DNA from: an uncultured Desulfobacteraceae bacterium
Lineage (GTDB): Bacteria; Desulfobacterota; Desulfobacteria; Desulfobacterales; 4572-123
DNA length: 50,517 nucleotides
Assembly (NCBI GenBank): GCA_964522985.1
Contig: CAZFXX010000001.1
Span: 1 to 50,517 of the forward strand
Reading direction: 5' to 3'
The notes beneath the pieces are model-generated. The model was given only the letters and a program-made list of their open reading frames with translations, had not been told where the DNA came from and ran no database searches. Below are positions 3,001-50,517 of this stretch, in pieces (position 1 is the stretch's first letter; the number at the start of each line of letters is the position of its first letter). A program made the translations under genes and the position numbers.

Positions 3001-6000
3001 GGTCAAGGACGTGGTGGCCGATGCAGCCAAACCTTTTGACGCAGAGCGGAACGGCACGATCCTTGGCAGCGGAGCCGTGTCCATGGTGATCGAACGGGAA
3101 GATAGTGTCCAGGAGAGGGGTTTGAACGGGCAGGCGGAAATTCTGGGGACCCATATCGGCAACAGCGCCTTTCATGCCACCCGTATCGATGTCGATCATA
3201 TCGGCGGTGCGATGCAGCGATTTATGACCGGTATGGAAAAACGCCATGGTCTACAGCGAAAAAAGATGGTGAAATCCATGATTTTTATGTCCCATGAAAC
3301 CTATACACCGGCGCGTGGCGGCAGTGCGGATGCTGAAATTGCCGCTTTAAGACAAACCTTTGGCCGGGAGAGCCGGGATATTACCATTACCAATACAAAG
3401 GGATTTACAGGCCATACACTGGGGGCGGCCATTGAAGATGCCGTCCTGGTCAAGGCCCTGCAAAAGGGCCTGGTGCCGCCGATTGCCAATTTGAAAAAAG
3501 TGCCCCCCGAGTTTGCAGATCTGAAACTGTTCCACCGAAGTAAGGGCGACTTTCGTTTCGGGCTGCATTTTTCGGCTGGCTTCGGGTCTCATTTTGCTTT
3601 TTTGCTGATCAAACGAGTCGCTGAAAAAGGGATTGAGAACAATGCGACATATACCCGCTGGCTGCAAAAAATATCCGGTTACACCAATCCCATGCCGGTA
3701 TTGCACAACAATACCCTTTATGTGAGTAAAGGCCCGGATGAGAAAGAAACATTGCCGGCGATAGCACCATCGGAAAGGAAAAAACCGATTTCGCCTCTGT
3801 CGGAAGCGGCCGCCGAAAAAAATCCTGGAAATTCCACGGTTGCGCAGGATACCGCCGAGTTGCTGATAAAAAGCATACAGGCGATTATTGCCAAACAGAC
3901 CGGGTACACCGAAGATATGCTGGATGCCGACCTTGATCTGGAAGCCGACCTTGGTATCGACACGGTCAAGCAGGTAGAGGTGTTCGGAAAAATTTCCGCT
4001 CATTTTAAACTGCCGGTGCCCGAGGACCTCAAGCTGAGGGACCTGAACACCATCGCCCGCCTGGCAGACTATATTGCGGCTGCAGTCGGAAATGCGAAAA
4101 TCGGGGCAGATCAGGCGGAACCCGTTGCCAGAGCGCAAAGTGCCGAAGGGGCACCCGTTATTTTGTCTACCATCCGGGATATCATTGCCAAACAGACCGG
4201 GTACACCGAAGATATGCTGGATGCCGACCTTGATCTGGAGGCCGACCTTGGTATCGACACGGTCAAGCAGGTAGAGGTGTTCGGAAAAATTTCCACCCAT
4301 TTCAATCTGCCGGTGCCCGAGGACCTCAAGCTGAGAGACCTGAACACCATCGCCCGCCTGGCAGACTATATTGCGGCTGAAACCGAAAGCAATGCACCTG
4401 AGGCGGGTCATTCGGAAAGCGCCGTTAAAGCGCAGGGTGACGACGACGCATTAAGGGAGTTGTCCATTATTCGTGGTATAATCGCCAAACAGACCGGGTA
4501 CACCGAAGATATGCTGGATGCCGACCTTGATCTGGAGGCCGACCTTGGTATCGACACGGTCAAGCAGGTAGAGGTGTTCGGAAAAATTTCCACCCATTTC
4601 AATCTGCCGGTGCCCGAGGACCTCAAGCTGAGAGACCTGAACACCATCGCCCGCCTGGCAGACTATATTGCGGCTGAAACCGGAAATAAGAAAACCGTGG
4701 CAGATCAAGCGGAAAAGACCGCTGGAAAGGATGCACAAACAGAAACATCGCCCCCAAGCATACCGGAAAAGGTTCCGGCGATTTCGACTTCAGGGGTCTG
4801 TCGTTTTGTTGTTAAGGCAGACGCGGTTCCGCTGTCCGAAAATCGGGAAAATATATTCAGGGACCATACTTTTCTCATAACGCCGGACCGTTTCGGGTTC
4901 GCCGATGCAATCAGTCGCAGGATCAAGTCTTTTTCCGGGCATGTTTTGACCATGGGCAGTGAAACATCGGCAGATATCCGGGTTGATTTTTCCGATTTAA
5001 AGAACCTGGAAGAAAAAATACAGGTTATTGGGGCAAAACACCCTGAAATCAAGGGGCTTATTCATCTGCACCCGCTGAATGCATACTTTGACGGCGGCCC
5101 AACGGACATCCATGAAATCACCGCATCCGTAAAATCGTTTTTCCTGATGGTCAGGTACCTGCTGCCCCTGCTGGATCGTTCGGGCACACTGATCTCAACC
5201 CTGGTCTTTGAATCGATTGTATTTCCCTATGGGAATTCGCCCGGGAATATCCATCCGGTATTTGCAGCCCTGGGCGGCATGCTCAAGACCATGAAAAAGG
5301 AATTGAAAAGTACTTTGGTCAAGGCCGTGGATTTTTCCATTCCAAATCCTCTGGAGCAGGTGGAATCCATTGTCGATCAATATGTGGCCGAACTCATGAC
5401 CTCTGACCGGCACGTGGAGACCGGTTACAGAGATGGTCGGAAATACACCCTGTCTCTGATAGAGCAGGCGGTCAAACAGGGTCGAAGCATGGTCAAAAAG
5501 GGTGATACGATCCTGGTTACCGGAGGGGCCCGGGGGATCACCTTTGAAATTTTAAAGGCCCTGGCAACAGAATATCAAATCCGTCCGATTATTTTCGGGC
5601 GTAGTGACATAAACGCGCTGGATGCGGATTTCAAGAGAGAAGATGCCGACGAACAATATATTTTCGGATGCTTGAAATCCCGGATGAAAGGCGCCAAACC
5701 CGTGGAAATAAAACGGGCCGTTCAAAAAAATATGGCACTTAAGAAGGTCATTGCCAATATCACAGCGCTTTCGGCGCTGGGAATCGATATTCGGTATCAT
5801 TGTGTCGATGTGCTTAACACAAAAGCTGTTTTGCGGGCCATTGACTCGATTTTACCCATAGACGGCGTACTTCATGCCGCCGGTGTGGAAGAGAGCCGAT
5901 TTATCGGAAAAAAATCGCTGGATTCTTTTAACCGGGTCTTTGATACCAAAATTACCGGTGCCCGCAACCTGCTGCAGGCACTTGACGGTAAAGCGTACCG

Positions 6001-7297
6001 TTTTTTTCTAACCTTTTCATCTGTTACCGCTAAATTCGGCAACGAAGGCCAGGTGGATTATACCGGGGCCAATGATATGCTGGCCAAAATTCTTTTGCAG
6101 GAAAAAATACTTCATCCGGAAAAAACATATAAGGTTTTTGACTGGACCGCCTGGGACGGTGCCGGCATGGCCACAAAGGAAACCGTTAAAAAAGTCCTGC
6201 AACAAAGGGGACTGGCGTTTTTGCCTCTTGACCGGGGTGTACGGTTTTTCATGGATGAACTGTATGATTCCGAATCGATAGAGGCGGTTTTTACCGGCAG
6301 AGACACTGACTTTGATCCGGATGGTTTGTTTCAGGCCGTGGACCTGCCAGCAGTTAAGCACAGTCGGCCCTTTATCGATCAGGTGAAGGACAAAAACGCG
6401 GTCCAGGCACAATATGCCAGGACACTGGACTTGAAAAGGGATCTTTTTCTGCTGGATCATTCCCGACGGGATGTACCCATATTTCTCGGGGCAACCGGTA
6501 TTGAGGCAATGGCTGAGGCGGCCTCGACCCTGGCGCCGGACGGCAGTCGTCTGATATCCATGCATGAATTTTCCATACCTTATGGCATAAAACTACTTAA
6601 GGGCAGGCCAAAGGAGATCTTAATTAAAGCCATGCAGCAGGTTGAGCATACTCACAGATTTGCCTGCAACATCTCGTCACAGTTTAAAAACCAGGAAGGC
6701 AGCGCCCTGGGGGATCCCAAACGCCACTATCAGGGGGTCTTCGAATTTTCCATGCAAAAGCCCGAACAGGTAGGGATCAGGATTCCCAAATTTACCCCGG
6801 TTCAATATGACGGTAATATCCAGAATCTTTTGTACCATCCGTCCAGGCTGTTTATGAACGGATTGTTCAGAACGGTTGAAGATATTCTTTCTTTTGAACC
6901 GAAGGTGTTGATTTCCAGGGTGCGCAACAGCAGTCAAAAGCCGTTTTTTGCCGGCGATGCAGCACCCGAGTTTATCACTGATGTGCCAATTGTAGATGCC
7001 ATGTTTCAGACCGGCGGTATGCTGGAAGTCATGACAACCCATGAGATTGTCTTGCCGGCCCGTATCCGGCGGATGGATTTTTACGGAAAGCTGCAAAAAA
7101 ACAAAGAATATACCTGTATTACCCGAAAGACCGATAACGGCCCAAAGGCCAATACCTATCAGCTCGATCTTGTGGATATCGACGGCATGCTTTTGATTCG
7201 TATCGAAGATTTTGAAATGATTAAGGTGGACCGCCTGGCGCCGGAAAACAGAATAACCGATAAAATCAGTTCGCCGGCCCTGAAAAAAGCCTCCTGA
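2..7297 (+). CDS. Multidomain type I PKS / PUFA-synthase (PfaA)-like megasynthase, 5' end cut by the window edge; domain order KS(Cys only)-AT-KS-ACPx3-KR-DH
   Basis: The frame is open from nt 2. CASSTIAIDLAV (KS active-site Cys motif) precedes the track's TTG 'start' at 44. AT motifs are GQGAQ, GHSVGEY (1188-1208) and GAFH. The second, FabF-like KS has GACAS (Cys codon 2849-2851), SHETYTP and TKGFTGHTLGAA. Three 99-aa carrier-protein repeats lie at ~3860-4680. The KR Rossmann motif TGGARGI is at ~5517. A DH-type LLDH motif has its His codon at 6458-6460. TGA stop at 7295-7297. Confidence 0.9.
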   Translation, partial: CASSTIAIDLAVKGLKSKNYEYVITGGADANLYPAVMLAFKRLSLLANGESRFFDNNSDGYIMGEGAAIQVLTTYKNAVKNKMPILGEINGLSFKSSVPGHLLAPSERAYKDAINDCYHKIPVNKNQVAHLDVFGVSNAFLDAMEKQAVEASFREKLYFGNIKPEFGYFKAANPAVVLTKLMLMNQNKTLLPNNSYRDKTSLVAKDSVLTPAGSIVDTVSRHRLHFAANVNGIGGIHGHMVVSTLPDHLMAGQIQVNVAETVTAVQQKRIKKTDAPALSQRTAQPLAPPAGPAISAGANIGTVKGRGIVALLSGQGAQHGGMMTQLYTSEATIRSTMDQGEAIFRQKRGYSLLDIMFGDSSDLDRTDNTQPAIFLSSAAIFQYLHEKGFKPDAYIGHSVGEYTALFCAGMLDFDKAMKLVIKRADLMMAAARQFPGKIMVVFRKASDVADLIVESGLGEIYVTNKNSEQQTAVSGRSGNIEIFCQFLKQKGVLFKKLALSGAFHTPLFGEAARQLGEYLKNLPFTSVDYTRVISNVTARPYPQDEQAVKELLVSQIVSPVEFIRSVQGAYAGELTDFVEIGPGKLLVNLLKNISIGAHHCMAAVEPKLGQAASLKRLADYLIDQKRLPMFKKPKPSLEKLSIPVLETSAGQKEIDSMDDAEFNAFLTKNDASLKKLMYREFLKRKRETNLQAIEKFNFNTGRIVVAGVSVGLPGTGHRVFNDDNFDRILAGNNFIEPLSRSEKEKILDMNITRVFKEPDGNARLLNITSTKDVIQLAGKLGYFDLKTEYGIDYNYDITISLAIAAGIEALKDARIPLVQQYRKTSHGSQIPDGFALPAEMQHTTGIILTSLFPGFETLITKMNNYYYNKFYVKPYKELESIYYHLMAEVTDETTKEQVTDWFFKIKERRKKYGKYKFDRNLLYDIIPLGSAHFAQLIKAKGPNIQMSGACASTTQAVGVAEDWIRTGRCDRVIVIGGEAATSEIQSPWVASGFLALGAASVKDVVADAAKPFDAERNGTILGSGAVSMVIEREDSVQERGLNGQAEILGTHIGNSAFHATRIDVDHIGGAMQRFMTGMEKRHGLQRKKMVKSMIFMSHETYTPARGGSADAEIAALRQTFGRESRDITITNTKGFTGHTLGAAIEDAVLVKALQKGLVPPIANLKKVPPEFADLKLFHRSKGDFRFGLHFSAGFGSHFAFLLIKRVAEKGIENNATYTRWLQKISGYTNPMPVLHNNTLYVSKGPDEKETLPAIAPSERKKPISPLSEAAAEKNPGNSTVAQDTAELLIKSIQAIIAKQTGYTEDMLDADLDLEADLGIDTVKQVEVFGKISAHFKLPVPEDLKLRDLNTIARLADYIAAAVGNAKIGADQAEPVARAQSAEGAPVILSTIRDIIAKQTGYTEDMLDADLDLEADLGIDTVKQVEVFGKISTHFNLPVPEDLKLRDLNTIARLADYIAAETESNAPEAGHSESAVKAQGDDDALRELSIIRGIIAKQTGYTEDMLDADLDLEADLGIDTVKQVEVFGKISTHFNLPVPEDLKLRDLNTIARLADYIAAETGNKKTVADQAEKTAGKDAQTETSPPSIPEKVPAISTSGVCRFVVKADAVPLSENRENIFRDHTFLITPDRFGFADAISRRIKSFSGHVLTMGSETSADIRVDFSDLKNLEEKIQVIGAKHPEIKGLIHLHPLNAYFDGGPTDIHEITASVKSFFLMVRYLLPLLDRSGTLISTLVFESIVFPYGNSPGNIHPVFAALGGMLKTMKKELKSTLVKAVDFSIPNPLEQVESIVDQYVAELMTSDRHVETGYRDGRKYTLSLIEQAVKQGRSMVKKGDTILVTGGARGITFEILKALATEYQIRPIIFGRSDINALDADFKREDADEQYIFGCLKSRMKGAKPVEIKRAVQKNMALKKVIANITALSALGIDIRYHCVDVLNTKAVLRAIDSILPIDGVLHAAGVEESRFIGKKSLDSFNRVFDTKITGARNLLQALDGKAYRFFLTFSSVTAKFGNEGQVDYTGANDMLAKILLQEKILHPEKTYKVFDWTAWDGAGMATKETVKKVLQQRGLAFLPLDRGVRFFMDELYDSESIEAVFTGRDTDFDPDGLFQAVDLPAVKHSRPFIDQVKDKNAVQAQYARTLDLKRDLFLLDHSRRDVPIFLGATGIEAMAEAASTLAPDGSRLISMHEFSIPYGIKLLKGRPKEILIKAMQQVEHTHRFACNISSQFKNQEGSALGDPKRHYQGVFEFSMQKPEQVGIRIPKFTPVQYDGNIQNLLYHPSRLFMNGLFRTVEDILSFEPKVLISRVRNSSQKPFFAGDAAPEFITDVPIVDAMFQTGGMLEVMTTHEIVLPARIRRMDFYGKLQKNKEYTCITRKTDNGPKANTYQLDLVDIDGMLLIRIEDFEMIKVDRLAPENRITDKISSPALKKAS
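3887..4676 (+). repeat. Three tandem 297-bp coding repeats (ACP domains) inside the megasynthase
   Basis: The repeat core (attgccaaacagaccgggtacaccgaagatatgctggatgcc...) starts at 3887, 4184 and 4481, an exact 297-nt period. Copies 2 and 3 are identical over ~200 nt. Copy 1 differs at a few codons. Confidence 0.95.
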
Positions 7298-7432: not shown

Positions 7433-8200
7433 GTGTTACAAAAGCAGATGACTTTTCAGGGCCTATGGAACGAGGTTTCCATGGGCACTGACATCCGGAT
7501 CGGTTTTATGGCGATTGCCGATTTTATCAAAACAAACCTTGTCAATGTTCCGGTTGAAAAATATCAGGTCTTGAAAAATATTGTTTTTCAGCCGGATATG
7601 TTTCGACGCCCCTTTCTCTCCTCCACCGAAATCAAAACCCTGAATCGTTTCAAGGCGTTGAAAAAGCAGATCGAATGGCTGAGCGGGCGATTCGCAGTAA
7701 AAAAATTGGTTTCTTCCATCAGCTTTGTGCCGAATCATTATTCCGATATTATCATTGATTATGAACCGGATGGCGCCCCCTATCTGCCGGAATACCCGGA
7801 TCTGCCCATCTCCATATCCCATTCGGGAGACTATGCGGCATGCGCCTTGAGCCGGGACAGCTTCATTAAAATCGGCATCGATATCGAAAAATTAGATCCT
7901 TCTGTCATTGAACACATTTTTAAAGTGGCTTTTACGGACCGGGAACAATCAATTCTGAAACGATGTTCCGATACCGCGGTTTTTGAAAACTGGACAGCCA
8001 AGGAAGCCTATCTGAAGTATATAAAAAAGGGCTTTAATGAGAGTTTGAAACAAGTTGAAGTGATCAACGGCAAGATTTATCACCACCGCCGGGAGGTGCA
8101 AGGTGCGGCCCTTTTTTCAACACGGATTGATAATGAATATGCGCTATCCCTGATTTACCGTGTGGGTCCGAAAACAGATTGCAGTAATTACGCCGCCTGA
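7433..8200 (+). CDS. Sfp/PfaE-type 4'-phosphopantetheinyl transferase
   Basis: Lies 135 nt downstream of the megasynthase. Motifs are GAPYL, ISISHSGDYAACAL, GIDIE and WTAKEAYLKY. The start is uncertain (GTG 7433, ATG 7448 or ATG 7481, all in frame). Confidence 0.8.
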   Translation: MLQKQMTFQGLWNEVSMGTDIRIGFMAIADFIKTNLVNVPVEKYQVLKNIVFQPDMFRRPFLSSTEIKTLNRFKALKKQIEWLSGRFAVKKLVSSISFVPNHYSDIIIDYEPDGAPYLPEYPDLPISISHSGDYAACALSRDSFIKIGIDIEKLDPSVIEHIFKVAFTDREQSILKRCSDTAVFENWTAKEAYLKYIKKGFNESLKQVEVINGKIYHHRREVQGAALFSTRIDNEYALSLIYRVGPKTDCSNYAA

Positions 8201-10748: not shown

Positions 10749-11801
10749 TCAGGAATGCTGGTAATTTACCCTATACACGGTCATCGGTTCATCGATTCCC
10801 TTGACCCTAACAGGGGGCAGGGCCATGGCATCAAACCTGCCCTCAATTTTTGAATAGGTCTCTTCGCTGATCAGGATTTCCCCCGCCTCCGCCATAGCCT
10901 GAAGCCGGGATGCAATATTAACCGCCATTCCAATCGAAGAAAATTCCTTTTTCCTCAAAGAACCGAGAATGCCTGAAAAAACAATTCCGGTGGCAATGCC
11001 GATGCCCACCTTGAGACGCAGACCCTCTTCTGAGGCCAGGCGTTGATCTATGCGATGGGCCTTGATCTGCATGGCAATAGCTGAGTCCACAGCCCTCATG
11101 GCATCATCATCATGAGTTACGGGAGAGCCGAAAACCACCATGATACTGTCACCAATATGTTTGTCCATGGTGCCGTTAAACGCATATGCAATCTCTCCCA
11201 TAGGCGAAAAAAAATGGCCGTTTAAAAAGGCGGCTATTTTTTCCGGAGGCGCCGTTCCGGACATCCTGGTGAAGCCGCGGATATCGGAAAACAGGACCGA
11301 CACCTCATTGAAGCGCGGCAGCAGGGCTTCGGGTGAATTGTCGATTTCCTGGTAAATCTGTTCGGGAATAAACTGCCGCAGGTGTTTGTGCACCATAATT
11401 CCATGGATTTTGGCCCGCAGTTCAAAGTTGTCAAACGGTTTTGTGAGAAATCCGTCCAGTCCCTCATTGGTAGCATTGATCGCAGCTTCCATGGTGGCGT
11501 AGCCGGTGAGGAGAATTCTCGTGACCTCCGGATTGAGGGCGCCAATGGCGGCAAGGGTTTCCATGCCGTCGAGTCCGGGCATCTTGTAATCGGAGATCAC
11601 CGTTGTCACATCATGGAGATGCGTTTTGATAAATTCGATGCCTTTTTCTCCGTTCTCAACAGTATGTATTTGATATGATGCTTTTTTAAGTGCTCTGGCA
11701 ATAGATCGCCGCACGCCTTCCTCGTCATCAATAAAAAGTAATCCGTTCATGATAAACCCTTTTTTATGGCCGGCAGACAGTGTCGAAACATCCTGGTGCA
11801 C
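10749..11801 (-). CDS. Response-regulator receiver fused to a class III adenylate/guanylate cyclase
   Basis: The REC domain shows LLFIDDEE...SDYKMPGLDG...K. The cyclase domain shows VSVLFSDIRGFT...GDSIMVVFG...GIGIATG. The more likely start is ATG at 11750 (MNGLLFIDD). Confidence 0.85.
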   Translation of the reverse strand: MHQDVSTLSAGHKKGFIMNGLLFIDDEEGVRRSIARALKKASYQIHTVENGEKGIEFIKTHLHDVTTVISDYKMPGLDGMETLAAIGALNPEVTRILLTGYATMEAAINATNEGLDGFLTKPFDNFELRAKIHGIMVHKHLRQFIPEQIYQEIDNSPEALLPRFNEVSVLFSDIRGFTRMSGTAPPEKIAAFLNGHFFSPMGEIAYAFNGTMDKHIGDSIMVVFGSPVTHDDDAMRAVDSAIAMQIKAHRIDQRLASEEGLRLKVGIGIATGIVFSGILGSLRKKEFSSIGMAVNIASRLQAMAEAGEILISEETYSKIEGRFDAMALPPVRVKGIDEPMTVYRVNYQHS

Positions 11802-12797
11802 TTACTGCATAAGTTTATGCCTATAGGCGTCGATAAGTTCCAGGGCTTCAGCTTCGAATGAAATATGTTTAATGGATTCACGGAAATTACTGCTGTGGGG
11901 AAGTCCTTTGACAAACCAGCCCAGTCGGCTGCGCAGCATATAGCAGGCGGGTTTCTCCCCTGAATATTCAACCGACAACCGGAGGTATTGTACCATAACT
12001 TCAAAACGGGATGCAAGATCAACCTGCAAAATGGGCTGTCCCTGCAACTGTGCAAGGGTTTGGGAGAAAATCCACGGGTTTCCGATGGCGATTCTTCCGA
12101 TCATAACCCCGTCACAGCCGGTGGTGTTGAGCATGGCAACAGCATCATCGGATTTTACAATATCTCCGTTGCCGATAACCGGTATATCGATCCGGTTTTT
12201 CATCTCGGTGATAACGGACCAGTCGGCAGTCCCCCTAAAACCCTGTGTCGATGTTCGGGGATGCACGGTTATAGCGTCGACACCGCAGGTTTCAGCAATT
12301 TTTGCAGTGATAAAGGCCTGCTCGGCGGATTTGCCCCAGCCGGATCTAATTTTTATGGTTACGGGAATTTTTACAGCTTTACGAACGGCATTCAGTATAC
12401 TTTCCGCTTTTTCAGGCGTTCGCATAAGGGCTGCCCCCGCCCCGGTTTTAACAATTTTTTTCACCGAACATCCAAAATTAATATCCAGTATGGCCGCTCC
12501 TGAAGATTCAACGATGGCTGCGGCATCTGCCATTATTGCCGGGTCAGATCCAAAAATTTGAACGCTCAGGGGTTTTTCCTGCAGCGTGCTGCACAGAAGC
12601 GCCATAGTTTTTCGAGAATTGTATACCAGGCCGTTGCTGCTGAGCATCTCGGAGCAGACCAGTGCACACCCTGCCGCTTTCATCAGCAACCGAAAGGGCA
12701 GGCTGGTAATCCCGGCCAGCGGTGCCATTACGGTAGGATTTTCCAGTGTAACAGCACCAATATTAATTTGCAGCGGATGATGGTTTGTTGCTTTCAT
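11802..12797 (-). CDS. dusB: tRNA-dihydrouridine synthase (DusB/NifR3 family)
   Basis: 331 aa. Motifs are VMAPLAGITSLPFR, DINFGC and ITVHPRT, with TIM-barrel flavoenzyme spacing. Confidence 0.8.
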   Translation of the reverse strand: MKATNHHPLQINIGAVTLENPTVMAPLAGITSLPFRLLMKAAGCALVCSEMLSSNGLVYNSRKTMALLCSTLQEKPLSVQIFGSDPAIMADAAAIVESSGAAILDINFGCSVKKIVKTGAGAALMRTPEKAESILNAVRKAVKIPVTIKIRSGWGKSAEQAFITAKIAETCGVDAITVHPRTSTQGFRGTADWSVITEMKNRIDIPVIGNGDIVKSDDAVAMLNTTGCDGVMIGRIAIGNPWIFSQTLAQLQGQPILQVDLASRFEVMVQYLRLSVEYSGEKPACYMLRSRLGWFVKGLPHSSNFRESIKHISFEAEALELIDAYRHKLMQ

Positions 12798-23439: not shown

Positions 23440-23805
23440 TCAATCGCTTTTCAGATTCTCTTCATATCCCTCTTTTACAAGAAGTTTTCGATACCACAGG
23501 GCGAATTCATACATACCCTGAAACCGTTCGTCGTTATTGATAATGCCATGGCAAATCTCTACGACACCTCTCCCGTATGCATTGCTATACTGATCAAAAG
23601 TACGCGATTGAAGGAACTCTCTGACCAATTGCTGGGTTGTTCTCCTGGTTTTATCTTTACGGATATCGATCGGATCCTTAGGCTCCTCGAACGGATCCCA
23701 CTTTTCATACCCTTTTTTAACGATGTGCTTCTGCCTTTTAGGCGACATAGAATCGAAGATCGCCTTTTTTCGTTCCTCTATTTCCTCGGATGTCAGCGTA
23801 TTCAC
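23440..23805 (-). CDS. Hypothetical protein
   Basis: 121 aa with a GTG start preceded by GGGGAG. It is in frame with the upstream gene across a TAG codon. No family recognised. Confidence 0.5.
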   Translation of the reverse strand: MNTLTSEEIEERKKAIFDSMSPKRQKHIVKKGYEKWDPFEEPKDPIDIRKDKTRRTTQQLVREFLQSRTFDQYSNAYGRGVVEICHGIINNDERFQGMYEFALWYRKLLVKEGYEENLKSD

Positions 23806-23814
23806 TTGTCTCCC

Positions 23815-24498
23815 CTATCTGATAATTCTGAAATCACCGGCTTTGTGCCCATCATTTATCCCAAGATATTCTTCCGTGTAGTCTGTTAACAGTGCCATAG
23901 AAAGCGGTACCAGCATATCTGCAAGTTTTACATACCTTGATTTAATATCAAAAATCAACTCAGCGGAAATTTGCTGCAATCGGCTAAACAGTTGATCCAT
24001 ATTAACCGTTGGATAAGTCCCCCCCGGCTCAAACCCGGATTTACCGCATGTGTAGCCACGGCCATTAATGGCCGTAGGGATTCCGTACAGTCGACAGGTT
24101 GCCGGTCGAAACGCATACATCTCACACATTTTATTATCATTTAGCAGAGGGCAGCGAACGTGCTGCAGTGCCAATTCCGATAAAATTTCCGCCTCACTCG
24201 ATCCCTTTTCCAGCTTATTAAACGCAGACCGTTTTATTTTGTGAATTATTCTATCCGCCCGATTGGCTCTTTCTTCAATTATTACCCTGTCCTGGGCTTC
24301 GAAAACCGCTTTAAACTTATTGTTCAGATACAAGGCTTCGATCAGCGTGAGATCGAACATAGCATAGCAACAATCATCACATCCGCTGGTACATTTTACG
24401 CATTCGGGGTAATCATTTTTTACCCGCATAAAAATATCATCTGTTGTTTTAATTAGCGTTTCATATTTTTTAAAATATGGTGAAAAATCGACGTCCAT
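23815..24498 (-). CDS. YkgJ-family (CxxCxxCC) cysteine-cluster protein
   Basis: 227 aa. It has the CVKCTSGCDDCC motif plus downstream Cys pairs (RCPLL...C..Y..RP..CRLYG) typical of UPF0153/YkgJ. The stop codon is TAG. Confidence 0.7.
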   Translation of the reverse strand: MDVDFSPYFKKYETLIKTTDDIFMRVKNDYPECVKCTSGCDDCCYAMFDLTLIEALYLNNKFKAVFEAQDRVIIEERANRADRIIHKIKRSAFNKLEKGSSEAEILSELALQHVRCPLLNDNKMCEMYAFRPATCRLYGIPTAINGRGYTCGKSGFEPGGTYPTVNMDQLFSRLQQISAELIFDIKSRYVKLADMLVPLSMALLTDYTEEYLGINDGHKAGDFRIIR

Positions 24499-39746: not shown

Positions 39747-40283
39747 TCAATTTTTCAAACCGGACTGAATCCATTTATTGATAGCTGGTATAAAATCTGC
39801 TTTCCATTCCGGTTGAAGTCTTATATTAATAAAAATTTTAAAAAGAGCGTCTATGATATTGGAAACTTTTTCAAACAGAAAAAGTTTTTCAAGAACCAAT
39901 CCCTCTACTTGATCATCTGATTCAAACACCCCGATATCGGGGTGTTTGAGGCCTGAAAAACTAAGGTTTTCGCCTTTTATACTGAATTTCCATTCCTGAT
40001 TACCAACTTTGTAAATCAAATTAAGCTCAGTAACCAGCGCCCCTTTTTTTAAAGAAAGGATACCCTCTTCTAAACCGGCATCGTCTCCCTTGATAGTGAT
40101 ACTTTCAACCGTGTCATTTATCCTGTTTTCCAGAACAATACGATTGCCTATCTCAATTAAAAAAGGTTCTTTATCCGGAGTGATGAATCGATTACGGTCT
40201 TTTTCCATTGAAAACCATAACCATGTTAAAAACTCATCTCCTAAAAACTTATAACGATTATACGCAACAGATATATCCAGCAT
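39747..40283 (-). CDS. RdgC-like protein, C-terminal-half homolog
   Basis: 178 aa. FLGDEFLTWLWF and the following beta-rich segment and C-terminal helix line up with my recollection of the C-terminal ~110 residues of E. coli RdgC. Its ATG is one codon after the TAG of the upstream ORF, in the same frame. Confidence 0.55.
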   Translation of the reverse strand: MLDISVAYNRYKFLGDEFLTWLWFSMEKDRNRFITPDKEPFLIEIGNRIVLENRINDTVESITIKGDDAGLEEGILSLKKGALVTELNLIYKVGNQEWKFSIKGENLSFSGLKHPDIGVFESDDQVEGLVLEKLFLFEKVSNIIDALFKIFINIRLQPEWKADFIPAINKWIQSGLKN

Positions 40284-40286
40284 TGA

Positions 40287-40901
40287 CTACCTCGTAAATT
40301 CAGCAGGTGAAATTTTTAAAAGTAAATCACGATCAGCATCGCTCAGGGAACATGATAATTCGGCCATTGTGTATGGAAAAAGACGTATAAGCGTTAATTT
40401 GAAAGTTTTTGAAAAAAACGTTTCAAGTTCTTCGTTGGCTGTTTTAAGGTTCGAAAAGAACCATAAATAATTTTTTTCATAATTCCATACAAGATCGTAA
40501 ATTTTAGGAGTTGCCGGAATACGAAGACTTAAGGTATTAATAACGTGTTCTCTAATAAGTTTTTTTTCATTACGAGATAAAAATTCTCTGTTGTTTTCAG
40601 CTAGTTTTTTTGATGTTTCCAAGATATAATATTTTTGTATAATTTTTGACGGTATTGATTTTTTATCAATTCTCAGAGAAAATACAAAATGGGTACCTAT
40701 TAAAAAGGAAGAGCCGGTAAAGTCGGGTTTAAAAGGATTGTTAAAAGATGTCCATCCTGATGCTTTTTCGGTTTCATCCTCATCTATTTCACGCAGTATA
40801 TTTTTTTTAAGACCCTGCGTTACCGCTTCAATAACAGGCTCTTCCAGTTTACCCACAACTTTATACCGCGTGATGGATACCGAAGATGATAATAATCCCA
40901 T
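40287..40901 (-). CDS. RdgC-like recombination-associated protein, N-terminal-half homolog
   Basis: 204 aa. ITRYKV..., ASGWTSFNNPF, FVFSLRIDKKSIPSKII and LSRNEKKLIREHVINTL are collinear with E. coli RdgC residues ~1-190 (from memory). It ends in TAG. Confidence 0.6.
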   Translation of the reverse strand: MGLLSSSVSITRYKVVGKLEEPVIEAVTQGLKKNILREIDEDETEKASGWTSFNNPFKPDFTGSSFLIGTHFVFSLRIDKKSIPSKIIQKYYILETSKKLAENNREFLSRNEKKLIREHVINTLSLRIPATPKIYDLVWNYEKNYLWFFSNLKTANEELETFFSKTFKLTLIRLFPYTMAELSCSLSDADRDLLLKISPAEFTR

Positions 40902-44452: not shown

Positions 44453-45283
44453 ATGAAAAAATTATTCACACTTGTCATAGTGGGCATGGTTATAGTCCTG
44501 ATCATATCGGCTGCTGTTTTGTTAAATCGCAGTGGTTCTGAAAAAAAATCGGTCTATTATAAAATAGAAGAGTATCGAAAAGAGGTCGTCGTCACAACAC
44601 CTTTTCCGGTTTTGCCGAAGAAAAAAAACAAGACAGTAGAAAGTAAACCGCTTTTAACACAAGATGAAATATCCCCGGGGTACAAGATAGATCAGGCTGA
44701 AGAAAAGAGGGACAGTATAATGCCGGCCGAAAAAGAAAAACCGGTACTGCCGGCGTCCAAAAAAGGTTCAAAAGAGATATCAGGTCAACTTGTTTTTGAT
44801 GACAGAAAGGTTCAAGGGCAAACGGTTGAAACAATATCGCCCATACAGGAATTAAAAAAGACGGATCTGGAAAAAAACCAGGAAATCCCAAAAGAAAATG
44901 ACGAGCACAAAGAGCCTGTTTTTCGGCTCTACCATGCCACAGGGGAAGATACGCTCTGGGATATTGCAGAGAAATATTATGGGAAAGGGAGCTATTATCC
45001 TGTTCTTCTGGAGCATAATCCGAATGCGGGTATCTATGATATCGGAAAGGACGTTACACTGAAAATTCTATCAAATAAAGAGCGTGCCGCAAAAATATAC
45101 AAAAAAATTGTTATTAAAAAAGAGGGGCATTTATTTTGGCGCTATTCCGTCGTAAGGGGAGATACGATGCAATCAATTATTAAAAAATATTATAAGAAAG
45201 GGCGGGGAAAAAGTGATATTCCAAACTTTGACAAGGACAGCGAATTGGAACCAGGCGAAAAAATATGGATTTTGATTAACTAG
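44453..45283 (+). CDS. Membrane-anchored protein with two C-terminal LysM-like domains
   Basis: 276 aa with an N-terminal TM helix. The LysM-like segments are YHATGEDTLWDIAEKYYG...LKIL and YSVVRGDTMQSIIKKYY...IWILI. TAG stop. Confidence 0.7.
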   Translation: MKKLFTLVIVGMVIVLIISAAVLLNRSGSEKKSVYYKIEEYRKEVVVTTPFPVLPKKKNKTVESKPLLTQDEISPGYKIDQAEEKRDSIMPAEKEKPVLPASKKGSKEISGQLVFDDRKVQGQTVETISPIQELKKTDLEKNQEIPKENDEHKEPVFRLYHATGEDTLWDIAEKYYGKGSYYPVLLEHNPNAGIYDIGKDVTLKILSNKERAAKIYKKIVIKKEGHLFWRYSVVRGDTMQSIIKKYYKKGRGKSDIPNFDKDSELEPGEKIWILIN

Positions 45284-45494
45284 TGTTCATCCGGCCCTGG
45301 TTTCTTTGCCTGCGCATTCCGTCACAGGTTGTACAACGATTAACGCACCAGGGTGTTTAAAAAAGATGCCATGGAATATACCACAAACACCCGCGTATAA
45401 AATTTAACATATTGTATTAACACAATAACAACCGACACCACAGATAAAATGCGGCATCGATTATTATTTAAGATACGGATTGTTTTTCGCGACG

Positions 45495-46906
45495 CTAAAT
45501 CCCCAGATCGCGTTTAAAAAGATCCACCGAGCGGATATTGATACCCAGAACTTCCGCAATTTTATATTTGGCACGAATACCCTTGGCACTTCCGGCGATG
45601 GATGTGACGGTGCCGATTTTCAGGTCGGCCCTGATGTCCCGCATAACTTCTTCATTGGTCAGATCCATGACATCAATACCGAGCTTGTCCGCTACATATG
45701 CTTTGGCCGCATTAATTTTCATTTTTCGGGTCATCTGCATCCAGGTCACCAGATCTCCGGCGGTTCGTATCCTCCCATACATGAAGCCATGATATGCGCG
45801 TTATGCATCCCTAAGGGGTCACCGACGCCAATCTACAACCCGTCGGCCTTGCCGATCTGGACAAGGGCCTTTGAAACACGGGTCACGGCGTCAATGGGCG
45901 GCTGCTCCATCATTGGGATGCCGCAGACGCCCATGCCCACGTTGGCATGAATCGGGATGTCCGATATATTTGACGCCGCCTTGAGAAACGTTACCGCCCT
46001 GGCCAGGTTCCAGGCAACGGACTCACTGGTGCTGGTGTTGATGGCCAAACCGAAAATATCGGCACCTGCTGATTGCACTACTTTTGCCTGGTCGTGAGGA
46101 TACAGCCCGGCCAGACGTTTGCCGTCGAAGGTCACCTCTCCGTGCATTCCAAGGATAAATTCACCGGATGCCCCCATGAGGATCGGCAGGTCGGGAACTG
46201 CTTTTTTAAGATCCGCCACTGCCTGCAGGGCCGCGAGGAAGTCGGCATCGCCCGCGGAACCGCAGGTATCGAAGTTAAGCCCCTCCAGGCCAACGTCCGC
46301 CAGTCTTTTGCCGATAAAAACAAGATCGTCTCTTAAATATTCGGCAGCCTGTTCCTGAGATTCACGGGCTTCTGCTATTTTTCCCAGCGGAAGCAGTTCA
46401 CCGGGGTTGGGACGGGGGCCGTCCGGCTGGGAGTACAGCCCCAGGTTGGGCTGTGCACCGTAGAATAACGGGGCCGTTGTGACCATTGAGGTGTTATAAT
46501 ACTCACCGGTTTCAAAGTTGATAATCGGTTTTACCGGTTTGTAGCTGTAATCGCTGTGGCCCATGGATGTGGAATCGGCGCCGCAGGCCCGCTCATAGGT
46601 CAAAATGGCCTGCTGCCTGCTCAAAGGTATACCGACACCCCCGCCGTCTTGACCGGAATAAAAACTCATGCTGCAGCCGTCGTCACTGACGATGACTTCC
46701 TCACCAGGGGATACACCGACGATTCTGGAGGGCTCAGCGATGATGTTAAAAAGATGCTCTTTTTCCTCATCGCTGATTTCGGGAATCCCGCCCCTGTCTG
46801 CTGCATCGGCGGTACCGTTGTCTATATCCCCTTTAATATCGGATGCCGCCATCCAGAGACGTTCACCATCCCCCATTCGGGTTAAAATTTGTTTATTCAT
46901 AGACAC
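45495..46906 (-). CDS. mtbB: Dimethylamine methyltransferase MtbB, pyrrolysine (in-frame UAG) type, with an apparent 1-nt frameshift near 45771-45779
   Basis: ORF 45833..46906 ends in TAG (45833-45835). It is collinear with Methanosarcina MtbB as I recall it (RMGDG.R, GVGIP, FDT.G.AGD, AWNLARAVTF.KAA, PPIDAVTR.SKA). Reading on gives IGVGDPLGMHNAHIMASCMGG. The homology (IRTAGDLV...KYKIAEVLGINIRSVDLFKRDLGI) then continues in another frame as ORF 45495..45782. The likely start is ATG 46900. Confidence 0.8.
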
Positions 46907-46918
46907 GCCTTACTTGTT

Positions 46919-48418
46919 TTACTGGTCTGAAATTCCCATTTCCGCCTCTGTTTCTTCCACAATAGAACGAATTTTTACCAGCACCTTTTTCGGAAGCGGT
47001 AATGGGGTATGGTTTTCCAGAATATATTTTACTTTTTCCACGGCCCTCTGGTGGGCAGTTGTAGCGCCGGCATTTTCCCAGACCTCCCTGGATTTGCGAT
47101 CGATCAGTTCCGGTGTGGACTGACTTCGCATTGTCTTAAAGGTATGTTCGTGGGTGAGAAATTCACCGGCGGGACCCACCTCCTTAATTACATCCAGGGC
47201 AATGGTATCGTCATTGACCGGAATACCTTGGACCGTGTGTTTGATCATGCGGGCAAACTCGCAATCTAAAACCAGCTGACCAAAATCAAATGTTATGCCG
47301 CTTTCAACCATTCCCAGACCGTAAATCATATTGGCGCCTGCCAATGCGGGTATCAGTCCGGTGAGGGTTTTTTCATGGCCCATCTGAGTGTCGGATATTT
47401 TCCCGTCGCCCTATCCACCGGCAACATAGCTCGGCAGTGCGTAATAACGGGCCAGACGCGCCACAGCCCCGCTTATCAGGGCGCATTCCGGTGTTCCCAC
47501 GGAGGCAGCGGCCAGTTTCAGGTCCATGGCAGTGGTGGAACTGCCGTAAATGACCGGGGCCCCTTTCCGGGTTAACTGGGAAAGGGTGAGTCCACCCAAT
47601 ATTTCGGCATTATGGGTGACCAGTGCTCCGGCCAGGGTTACCGGTGCGGTTCCTCCGGCCATGGCCATGGACAGGATGTTACATACCACGTTGTTTTTGG
47701 CCGATTCCATAATAATTTCGCAACAGTCCCGGATTAATTGCAAAGGGCTCACCGGACAGGTGGTAAAGGAAACCAGGGGTCTTTTTTTAAGATTTTTCAT
47801 CCCTCCTGCAATGGCCGCGGCCATTTCTAATATTTTATTGAGCAATTTTCCATTGCCCGGGCCAAATGCGCAATGCTTGCTAGTGTGGGTCAGATACACT
47901 TCTGCGTTGTGCAGCGGCACACTGTCCTGGTGGACATCATGGGCACCCAAGGCTTTTTCGCAAAAATCGATTTCATCCAGGTAATCGATAACACGGGCGC
48001 TGTCGATAAGGTCCTTTTTCATGGGGGATCGGTTTTCACCGGTATAAGGATCGTTTATCATCACCCCTTCGCTGAAATTGGTAAAATGGACCCTGTTGCT
48101 TTCCAGCACAATATCGTGTTTGGGATCTCTGCCATATAAAATCACCTTGGAAGGGGCCGAGCGAATGGCATCTTCCACTATGTATGGGGGGATTTTTACA
48201 ATTTTACTGTCCCGGTCCACCAGCGCACCGTTGTCGGCAAAACAATCCAGCGCATTGCTATCTTCGATAAAAATTCCTGTTGTTTCAAGTAGTTCCAGGG
48301 TTGCCAGATGGATTTCGTCGAGTTCGTCATCGGTAAGGATATTGAGGCTCAATCCTCCATTTAAATTTTTTCCCGCATGCAAATTTCTTTTCATAAAATA
48401 GCTACCTAACCCGGACAA
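46919..48418 (-). CDS. mttB: Trimethylamine methyltransferase MttB, pyrrolysine (in-frame UAG) type
   Basis: ORFs 47411..48418 and 46919..47383 share one frame. They are separated only by TAG (47411-47413) plus 9 sense codons (GDGKISDTQ). The context LPSYVAGG-UAG-GDGK...GHEKT matches the Pyl site of Methanosarcina MttB. The joined length is ~491 aa from the likely ATG at 48394. Confidence 0.88.
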
Positions 48419-48578
48419 GCCGGAAATAAATTAAATATTGAATAATAAAAATTGATAGCTCGGGCAAACACAAGCGCTCCCCTACACCCCCTTGTTTTTC
48501 ATTATTTAATTGTCGCAGGGTGGGCATTGCCCGCCAAACAGGCTTTTCAATTATAAAGAATACTTTTTTGTTCATTTC

Positions 48579-49883
48579 TTACAGGTACTTTTTTAAATAC
48601 GCATAATCCGGGGTCAATTTGCCGTTATACACAATCACTGCTTTGTTAATTTCCGGGCAGAGCCCGGAAGTTTCAAGGGATGTGTGATAATCAGCCGTTA
48701 TTAAGTTGGGCACAAAGGGTTTGAGCTGGTTGCTGAAAAATATGGATGAATCATTGGGCAGTTCACAGGGAAGATTGTCCACGGCCAGCAGGACGATACC
48801 ATCTCCTTTGTGGCCATCAGTGGTGGTGCGAGTGATCGGATCGCAGAGATAGGCCGGCATCTGGGTTTCGGTGGCCTTTACCGTACATTCTACAGCGCCG
48901 TTGATATCACAGCTGATATCGGCAATACCGCAGAGCCTGGGGTGCTTAGTTTCTAAGAAAAGTTTTTTAAGTCCGTCCCATGTGACAAATCTTGGGCACC
49001 TGTTTTCCCAGTAAACCGCGTTGATCAGGATGGAAAGATAGGGTAAAAATTCGTCAAAGCGGCTTTTGTATTTTTCCGGCCGCTGATAGTAGTCATTCAG
49101 ATCAAAAGGGGTATTGTCTTTGCGGCAGACAAGGTCTTTTTCCTTGAAAATAGTAATATATAGGGTTTTATTGTTGATTTTGCCTTTTTTTGTAAGGAAT
49201 TTTAATGCGTCCGGTTCGATTTTTGCGGCTGGCAGACAATCAAGGATCTGCTGGGCACCGCCCGATACATTTCCATATCCCATGATGCCGATGACCATAG
49301 GGCTTAAAGCCTCGGGTAATCCTTTGGTTCTGATAAGGTCACCGATTTTTTTTAAATGGGTGCGGGCATCTTCCACGGAGGCGTATTGATGGGCCCTGCG
49401 ACACTCACGAAAAGGGGTGTCAAGGCCGTGGTGTTCCCAGTACTCGCCCATAAGGGAGAGGATATCGATGGTGCCGGCATCGCCGGCATATCGGCCGAAA
49501 TAAATAAGGCGACGGTTTTGGTCGTCGATTATTTTTTCATAGTCAATAAGGGTCGATCCGCTGGAAATAATTTTTTGTAAAAGCGGCATTCCCGATGCCT
49601 GGCCCTTTATGGTGTGCGAAAAAAAGAGATAGGTCTTGCCGGCAAGGATTTTTTCCTCGGGGATCTCCTTTACACCGAAAATAATATCTCCCGAATTCAT
49701 GCCTTGGCAGGACGCGGCACCGGCGGCTTCATATTCACGGGCTTTGAAAAAGCGTTTTCCCGATTGTTCAACAAAGGCCGTGGCCCGGGTCTGCTGGATG
49801 ATTTCCTGAAGGTCGGCGGGAACGATGGGTGCCCGGCGTTCCCAGATATTTTTATCTTCGGCCCGAATCAGCAATTTTTTCAT
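48579..49883 (-). CDS. Lysine-ketoglutarate reductase (saccharopine dehydrogenase, L-lysine-forming; AASS N-terminal-domain homolog)
   Basis: 434 aa. It is collinear with the LKR half of eukaryotic AASS as I recall it: RAEDKN.WERRAP..P, YLFFSHTIK, LIDYEKI, ICDISCD and VDNLP.ELP. Confidence 0.8.
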   Translation of the reverse strand: MKKLLIRAEDKNIWERRAPIVPADLQEIIQQTRATAFVEQSGKRFFKAREYEAAGAASCQGMNSGDIIFGVKEIPEEKILAGKTYLFFSHTIKGQASGMPLLQKIISSGSTLIDYEKIIDDQNRRLIYFGRYAGDAGTIDILSLMGEYWEHHGLDTPFRECRRAHQYASVEDARTHLKKIGDLIRTKGLPEALSPMVIGIMGYGNVSGGAQQILDCLPAAKIEPDALKFLTKKGKINNKTLYITIFKEKDLVCRKDNTPFDLNDYYQRPEKYKSRFDEFLPYLSILINAVYWENRCPRFVTWDGLKKLFLETKHPRLCGIADISCDINGAVECTVKATETQMPAYLCDPITRTTTDGHKGDGIVLLAVDNLPCELPNDSSIFFSNQLKPFVPNLITADYHTSLETSGLCPEINKAVIVYNGKLTPDYAYLKKYL

Positions 49884-49943: not shown

Positions 49944-50517
49944 TCAGGTATTTATAGGATCGGTCAGAGTGGTTTTTCGTTCCGTGAAAGCGATATTCAG
50001 GGTTTTCAGCTCGGCCAGCACCGGTTCGTAAATTTCCGGCAACACCGGGATATGAACGCCGGACAGGTCGATTTTTCCTTCTGCAAGCAATTTCGTGGCG
50101 ATGGCTACGGGCAGGCCCACCGTGCGGGACATGGACGTATCGCCACCCGGGATACCGGTATCGATCAGGGTCGATGTGATTATTTCTTTTTTATGGTCCG
50201 GATACTCAGCCGTAAATTCATGATGCTGAATCAACAGGTCTTTTTCACCTTTATGGTAGGTCAGCTTGTTCAGCAGGGTATGGGCAAACATGTCAAATAC
50301 ACTGCAGGTACCGATATCGAGTTTTTCATCGTTAAAAAGGCCGAGCCAGTCAAGTTTTTTGATTGTCAGGGCAAATTCGGGAATTTTAAGATAGGCGGCC
50401 ACCTCTTTTTTCAGGTCAGGTCCATTGCTGTTAATGATATTGGCGATGACCTGACGGGGGGTGATTTCGGAAAAATTAAACTTCATTTTACGATTGAGCA
50501 GGCCCAGTTTTTTGAAA
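49944..50517 (-). CDS. Saccharopine dehydrogenase (L-glutamate-forming), C-terminal part; 5' end beyond the window
   Basis: The frame stays open upstream of the track's ATG to the window edge (FKKLGLLNRK-MKF...). The C-terminal SDH signature is GDTSMSRTVGLPVAIATKLLAEGKI. Confidence 0.75.
   Translation of the reverse strand, partial: FKKLGLLNRKMKFNFSEITPRQVIANIINSNGPDLKKEVAAYLKIPEFALTIKKLDWLGLFNDEKLDIGTCSVFDMFAHTLLNKLTYHKGEKDLLIQHHEFTAEYPDHKKEIITSTLIDTGIPGGDTSMSRTVGLPVAIATKLLAEGKIDLSGVHIPVLPEIYEPVLAELKTLNIAFTERKTTLTDPINT

Follow-up and report, generated by a model that had tools for sequence, protein, structure and literature searches.

Does an in-frame UAG between two adjoining open reading frames (ORFs) of an uncultured sulfate reducer end translation, or does it encode pyrrolysine (Pyl) within one methyltransferase gene? 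The question arises in a stretch of 50,517 nucleotides (contig CAZFXX010000001.1 of assembly GCA_964522985.1, an uncultured Desulfobacteraceae bacterium), hereafter the window, which was analysed at its full length. A first-pass annotation, made from the sequence letters, had proposed that a 335-aa ORF and a 154-aa ORF on the minus strand fuse via UAG into a full-length trimethylamine:corrinoid methyltransferase, MttB. In this study, we conclude that the locus is very probably a genuine Pyl-coding mttB, a single gene from which an uncultured marine member of the Desulfobacterales would make its pyrrolysine-dependent trimethylamine:corrinoid methyltransferase. The coordinates of the features are collected in Table 1.

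Based on translation of 46919-48394 on the minus strand, the frame consists of 327 codons, a single stop, TAG, and a further 163 codons up to TAA. The UAG is thus codon 328 of 491 counted from the ATG at 48394, as originally counted. The minus-strand junction reads CCG AGC TAT GTT GCC GGT GGA TAG GGC GAC GGG AAA ATA TCC GAC ACT CAG ATG GGC CAT GAA, in which nine codons (GDGKISDTQ) separate the UAG from the ATG (47383) of the 154-aa ORF in the same frame. Pfam MTTB (PF06253) matches the joined protein without interruption (residues 16-487, covering positions 30-500 of the 500 in the profile; 312 bits), which indicates that the two halves form one domain and bears out the proposed fusion. Similarly, the joined protein reaches 741.6 bits against the NCBIfam equivalog TIGR02369 (trimeth_pyl), for which the cut-off is 525. 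The best phmmer match among all PDB chains is Methanosarcina barkeri MttB (7XCL/7XCM; E=7e-117, 42% identity), and in this alignment the UAG stands opposite X334, the Pyl of 7XCL (LPSYVAGG-UAG-GDGK...GHEKT against LPSYVAGS-X-SDAK...GHEKT); the canonical Pyl position claimed for it is therefore correct. Moreover, Tyr364 and Met249 of the M. barkeri enzyme correspond to Tyr358 and Met243 of the window MttB, and their equivalents are kept in 81/81 and 80/81 related copies, respectively. Tyr358, the equivalent of the catalytic tyrosine, falls within the post-UAG segment. Members of the family that do not use Pyl carry a sense codon at this column, as had been stated: 2QNE has Leu there, and the local paralogue has Ser. 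The identity of the gene and the position of its UAG are firmly established, and the joining of two ORFs with a UAG at the Pyl column is far beyond chance. With regard to the start, a TTG at 48418 gives the alternative 335-aa ORF upstream of the UAG, while the ATG gives the 327 codons. The TTG is probably not used, because the relatives all start MKRNLHAGK at the ATG.

To place the gene among its relatives, one genome per GTDB species was scanned; relatives were found in 203, and the best 80 loci (74-95% amino acid identity) were retrieved. Almost all of these loci carry the label Desulfobacterota or Deltaproteobacteria; among the named organisms are Desulfospira joergensenii, Desulfocicer vacuolatum, Desulfamplus magnetovallimortis and Desulfacinum infernum. 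The assignment to a sulfate reducer fits, as the nearest relatives are all Desulfobacterales and both sat and fhs are present in the window. Across the 81 related mttB copies of the 80 loci and the window copy, the Pyl column is TAG in 82/82, and TAA, TGA or a sense codon occurs in none; clade-wide conservation of the TAG is thus a firm observation. The window population itself was found in three other assemblies (one from ENA, two from JGI) at 99.8-99.95% identity, gapless and with the identical TAG. It is accordingly very improbable that the TAG arose by faulty sequencing or assembly, or that the UAG is read by an ordinary suppressor inserting a standard amino acid. The metagenomic source leaves room for such an error and nothing specific speaks for either, whereas the same TAG recurs in those three assemblies and in the 81 related copies, which stem from independent projects, and relatives possess a dedicated tRNA-Pyl and PylS beside mttB.

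The segment downstream of the UAG is under selection as protein. Against the four closest relatives (L004-L007), the ratio of non-synonymous to synonymous substitution rates (dN/dS) of mttB amounts to 0.03-0.05 in the part ahead of the UAG and to 0.11-0.18 in the part that follows. On the window branch alone, synonymous changes outnumber non-synonymous ones by 31 to 6 ahead of the UAG and by 17 to 5 past it (the latter a ratio of about 0.09). This purifying selection firmly indicates that the post-UAG frame has been translated along the lineage of the window itself. Protein-level conservation also extends over the nine codons that lead from the UAG to the ATG of the 154-aa ORF (GD[GS]KISD.Q), while most relatives have Thr, Ala, Val, Ile or Leu in place of the Met at 47381-47383 with which that ORF would start, so that there is no conserved restart. 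These observations bear directly on a split enzyme, in which the UAG would be a true stop, the 154-aa ORF would be made from the ATG at 47383, and two subunits would assemble without pyrrolysine. An ATG does lie only nine codons past the UAG, and gene callers do annotate two proteins. However, the Met is not conserved and the nine codons are, which rules out a two-polypeptide enzyme; furthermore, the stop is invariably TAG rather than TAA or TGA in the 82 copies, and the residue of this column is catalytic in the solved enzyme. We therefore consider that the split arrangement has hardly any chance of being correct. The two annotated proteins instead agree with the expectation that gene callers miss Pyl genes: standard callers split mttB into 327+154 aa.

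A second UAG gene, which the first-pass annotation had missed, lies immediately downstream. It is mtbB, for dimethylamine methyltransferase, which starts about 12-18 nt past the mttB stop, runs for 355 codons up to its own TAG, and is split by the callers into 355+84 or 355+95 aa. The mtbB TAG is kept in 32/32 sequences (the window, L001, L003 and 29 relatives). The Rfam models RF02509 (PYLIS_2, mtbB) and RF02510 (PYLIS_3, mttB) match exactly at the two UAGs of the window, both above gathering.

In the proposed mechanism, the ribosome would read the codon-328 UAG of mttB via a Pyl-charged tRNA(CUA), supplied by a pylT-pylS-pylBCD set outside the 50-kb window, to give a 491-residue TIM-barrel enzyme. 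The pyrrolysine imine, aided by Tyr358, would bind trimethylamine, and one methyl group would be handed to a corrinoid protein. The methyl group would then be oxidised via the tetrahydrofolate/Wood-Ljungdahl route, coupled to sulfate reduction. The scheme draws on established background: Pyl-tRNA(CUA) and the release factor compete at UAG, the Pyl imine binds trimethylamine with Tyr364 working through a bound water before the methyl group passes to the Co(I) corrinoid protein, and in these sulfate reducers the methyl group is oxidised by the reverse Wood-Ljungdahl route (PMC9842639, PMC8318568).

Several observations weigh against a functional Pyl gene in this organism, and they concern the decoding machinery, the corrinoid partner, the use of TAG elsewhere, one structural motif and the neighbouring mtbB. 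First, ARAGORN found no tRNA gene in the window, and hence no pylT, and Rfam at gathering thresholds returned the two PYLIS matches and nothing else for the window, again without pylT. None of pylS, pylB, pylC and pylD was detected in the 50.5 kb by Pfam searches of the 37 likely-gene ORFs or by tblastn with the Pyl proteins of locus L010, and pyl genes and a corrinoid protein are also missing from the 7.9 kb past the right end of the window as seen in L001. Similarly, tblastn with the MtbC of L010 gave no match for a corrinoid protein (MttC/MtbC) in the window or in L001-L007; the B12-binding domains of the window belong solely to radical SAM enzymes, and the cognate corrinoid protein may be encoded elsewhere in the genome. 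The closest relatives, L004-L007, share the window arrangement and have no pyl genes or tRNA-Pyl within 10 kb of mttB. Second, the 37 ORFs of the window end in TAA (16), TGA (13) or TAG (8); two of the eight TAGs are the presumed Pyl codons, and TAG ends 6 of the 35 other ORFs. Decoding of UAG would therefore be ambiguous or subject to regulation, a situation shared with other Pyl users. Third, the Gly110-Thr111 cis-peptide pair, described as 100% conserved among Pyl-MttBs (PMC9842639), is replaced by Ser108-Glu109 in the window (at about 48068-48073 on the minus strand), and the motif is NFSEG in 80/81 relatives. Ser-Glu may be tolerated at this position, because the reported role of the pair uses main-chain atoms (PMC9842639), and the clade-wide replacement of a supposedly invariant pair is potentially a new item.

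Finally, the frame of mtbB is broken. In three assemblies that are independent of one another (the window, L001 and L003), a stop follows 28 codons after the UAG, whereas in 29/29 relatives the frame is intact downstream of the UAG for 110-117 codons. The cause is a 1-nt deletion between 45771 and 45770 (ATGGGAGG^ATACG), which breaks the frame 21 codons past the UAG: in the DNA alignment the relatives read ATGGGAGG[C/T]AT and the window ATGGGAGGAT, and the Rfam PYLIS_2 alignment has a gap at the same spot. Programmed frameshifting was considered and rejected, since no slippery heptamer occurs at ATGGGAGGATAC and 29/29 relatives carry the extra base. In the repaired frame past the break, the window-specific changes are 17 synonymous and 7 non-synonymous, a bias that marks the lesion as recent. 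Judging from these alignments, mtbB appears to have been inactivated recently in this population by the deletion, and the frameshifted gene could mean that the methylamine pathway is beginning to decay. A metagenome scan for intact and frameshifted mtbB alleles gave no hits, although its pattern matches L003; the collection scanned evidently does not include the source samples.

Taken further, this would make mttB a decaying relic, a young pseudogene like mtbB, in a lineage where pyrrolysine was in use until recently, where the pyl machinery has since been lost or is being lost and where the UAG now terminates. The mtbB deletion in the window, L001 and L003 and the missing pyl and corrinoid genes of the window fit such a relic, and the 17:7 ratio of mtbB past its frameshift means that inactivation can predate any dN/dS signal. 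However, mttB is free of any frameshift or extra stop over its 491 codons, and its window-branch ratio after the UAG is low, as given above. In addition, mttB and mtbB are intact in the closest relatives, and in one genome two mttB copies with the UAG, at L006 and L009, lie on a single contig. We regard the relic as improbable, although less so than the split enzyme or a misread TAG.

Some relatives do carry the machinery close to mttB. A tRNA-Pyl(CUA) lies within 10 kb of mttB in 30/80 related loci, and at least one pyl protein gene does so in 33/80. The L010 cluster has the order pylT-pylSc-pylB-pylC-pylD-pylSn, with each pyl protein gene above its NCBIfam equivalog cut-off, and adjoins non-Pyl MTTB / saccharopine-dehydrogenase-like / AlaDH-like / mttB / mtbB / corrinoid protein. 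Without the pyl genes and the corrinoid protein, the gene order of L010 equals that of the window. Since the window contains no machinery, we infer UAG=Pyl for this organism from the conservation of the TAG and the purifying selection downstream of it; of the code expansion originally claimed, these two lines of evidence stand, while decoding by this organism is a strong inference from sequence and not a demonstration. Likewise putative are the insertion of pyrrolysine, trimethylamine as the substrate, and the presence in this genome of pyl genes and of a cognate corrinoid protein.

We next consider the mRNA downstream of the mttB UAG. The lowest synonymous codon entropy of mttB, 0.18 against a gene mean of 0.73 (82 sequences), lies at codons 345-355, where Leu351 is TTG in 82/82 copies although TTG makes up 14% of the Leu codons in these genes. 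This region forms a hairpin with an inner stem AUUGGC/GCCAAU closed by a loop AGGY and an outer stem CCGGA/UCUGG. The 6-bp inner stem is paired in 82/82 sequences, four of which have compensatory double changes from AU to GC that are synonymous, and the outer stem shows AU-to-GC and CG-to-UA double changes. In a 41-sequence alignment, 95.6% of the cells are paired, against 22-38% with slid partners, and 8 cells are changed on both sides, against 1.3±1.1 in shuffles. RNAalifold recovers the identical stems. The 100-nt post-UAG fold is not unusually stable (z = -1.44). Furthermore, the stretch encodes the active-site motif PALAGANMIYG, so that the protein accounts for some of the constraint, but the synonymous-site signal stands out. 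It is possible, though on balance somewhat unlikely, that in the mttB of Desulfobacterota the hairpin serves as a PYLIS-like RNA element particular to this clade. If so, it could tune the fate of the ribosome or the mRNA at the Pyl codon, for instance by favouring read-through over termination or by protecting the downstream mRNA upon termination. The structure of the Rfam PYLIS_3 model was rejected as evidence for an RNA element: the model has 8 pairs in total, of which 4 are non-canonical in the window mttB, and its score therefore reflects sequence homology rather than structure. The hairpin and RF02510 comprise different pairs, and the mixed archaeal/bacterial consensus of the model, judged from the Rfam consensus line, does not encode the hairpin. 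In the survey of Theil Have et al. 2013, no shared structure was found for mttB (PMC3639795), and the conserved post-UAG hairpin is potentially a new item. In mtbB, the lowest synonymous codon entropy is a weaker dip, to 0.41 where the gene averages 0.72, at codons 382-392, 26-36 codons past the mtbB UAG; it lies at about 45725-45760 on the minus strand and overlaps the 3' stem of PYLIS_2. A promoter and terminator scan of 45200-48700 gave counts no greater than in shuffled sequence.

The window MttB was compared with known systems. Like M. barkeri MttB (7XCL/7XCM/7XCN; Li et al. 2023, PMC9842639), it has the motif LPSYVAG-x-Pyl-xDxK...GHEKT; it differs in its bacterial host, in Ser108-Glu109 and in the lack of an adjacent mttC corrinoid gene. 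The non-Pyl proteins 2QNE (MtgB of Desulfitobacterium hafniense) and 9YCE (a glycine betaine methyltransferase) belong to the same TIM-barrel family (E about 1e-68). The methyl group of the window MttB presumably goes to tetrahydrofolate, whereas that of M. barkeri goes to coenzyme M. At the Pyl column, the window has TAG where the D. hafniense protein has its Leu and the paralogue of this same population (L001 5527-6951) its Ser. This paralogue lies three genes upstream of mttB and is 28% identical to the window MttB, and its L010 homologue scores 226 bits on the Pyl-MttB model, below the cut-off of 525.

Closer counterparts exist among marine bacteria. Kivenson et al. 2021 described marine Desulfobacterales with pylT, pyl genes, multiple Pyl-MttB copies and Pyl-MtbB (PMC8318568), and a genome of that study, CORE_19_RING_Bin_00001, is our locus L025 (81% identity). 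The deltaproteobacterial delta-1 symbiont of Olavius algarvensis was reported to be rich in Pyl proteins (Zhang & Gladyshev 2007, PMC1976440), and a Desulfobacterium species was among the Pyl organisms listed in 2013 (PMC3639795). As in the marine Desulfobacterales (PMC8318568) and the symbiont (PMC1976440), which are of the same clade, the window has an mttB/mtbB pair with an in-frame TAG in each. Unlike these systems, the window pair lies in the replication-origin region, away from pyl and corrinoid genes, and its mtbB is frameshifted. Compared with the archetype, the window mttB stands out by Ser-Glu in place of Gly110-Thr111, its separation from pyl and corrinoid genes, the broken mtbB beside it and the post-UAG hairpin.

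Table 1. Positions of the features at the mttB/mtbB locus of the window, with the evidence for each
Feature	Position	Strand	Evidence or remark
mttB, trimethylamine:corrinoid methyltransferase	46919..48394	-	491 codons including in-frame UAG; TAA at 46919-46921
In-frame UAG, codon 328 of mttB, presumed pyrrolysine codon	47411..47413	-	column of X334 in 7XCL
Post-UAG mttB segment, 163 codons	46922..47410	-	selection and comparative alignment
Hairpin within mttB coding sequence, 52-100 nt past UAG	47314..47361	-	synonymous conservation and covariation
Rfam PYLIS_3 (RF02510, mttB)	47314..47413	-	67.8 bits against gathering 38; begins at UAG
mtbB, dimethylamine methyltransferase	45495..46900	-	Pfam Dimeth_Pyl (PF09505), 629 bits after frame repair
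In-frame UAG, codon 356 of mtbB	45833-45835	-	TAG conserved; Rfam PYLIS_2 match
Rfam PYLIS_2 (RF02509, mtbB)	45737..45835	-	65.3 bits against gathering 36; begins at mtbB UAG
AlaDH/PNT-like dehydrogenase, conserved neighbour upstream of mttB	48579..49883	-	Pfam
Saccharopine-dehydrogenase-like gene, 3' part, cut by window end	49944..50517	-	Pfam Sacchrp_dh_C

The neighbourhood of mttB is conserved in part. The order AlaDH/PNT-like gene followed by mttB is common to L001-L008, L010, L012 and others. In L001 the saccharopine-dehydrogenase-like gene is complete (446 aa) and is preceded by the non-Pyl MTTB paralogue (474 aa). The block of non-Pyl MTTB, saccharopine-dehydrogenase-like and AlaDH/PNT-like genes (L001 5527-8451) precedes mttB in about 25 of the 80 loci and often adjoins the pyl operon; neither dehydrogenase has an equivalog assignment. 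In L006 (HOU_bin.0076), the N-terminal part of mtbB at 11493-12559 is off register with its TAG, since the spacing of 1066 nt is not divisible by 3, and ahead of the TAG the frame stays open for just 227 codons. Either a frameshift or an indel introduced by long-read sequencing may explain this break. The replication-origin neighbourhood of the window comprises rnpA, yidC, jag, mnmE, gyrB and dnaN.

Two other TAG junctions were noted on the minus strand. At 39747-40901, a 204-aa rdgC-like ORF ends in TAG, followed after one codon by the in-frame ATG of a 178-aa ORF. This TAG is retained in L005-L007, and it was rejected as a Pyl site, since it overlaps a Shine-Dalgarno-like AGGTAG and probably reflects ordinary spacing. 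At 23440-24498, a 227-aa CxxCxxCC-domain ORF stops at TAG, and its frame stays open for 124 more codons, spanning the next ORF (121 aa, no Pfam match). At the other end of the window, a huge multidomain synthase ORF of the polyunsaturated fatty acid (PUFA)/polyketide type (44-7297, plus strand) has ketosynthase (KS), acyltransferase (AT), several acyl carrier protein (ACP), ketoreductase (KR) and dehydratase (DH) domains; the window edge probably truncates it at the 5' end, and a phosphopantetheinyl transferase follows at 7433-8200.

Collectively, the fusion of the two ORFs was a correct finding and a useful annotation catch. The trait was described as known but rare in bacteria. It is indeed known, having been published for marine Desulfobacterales in 2021 (Kivenson 2021, PMC8318568), and it is common there, so that conceptual novelty is none. 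Rarity is overstated for this clade: close relatives of the Pyl-mttB occur in 203 species-level genomes, a PylS-C profile search recovered 4517 protein clusters at E<=1e-30, and the trait is widespread rather than rare. As both Pyl genes are split by the callers, methylamine use by this sulfate reducer would be missed in standard annotation. With mttB read through its UAG, another marine Desulfobacterales population would be added to the bacteria able to compete with methanogens for trimethylamine.

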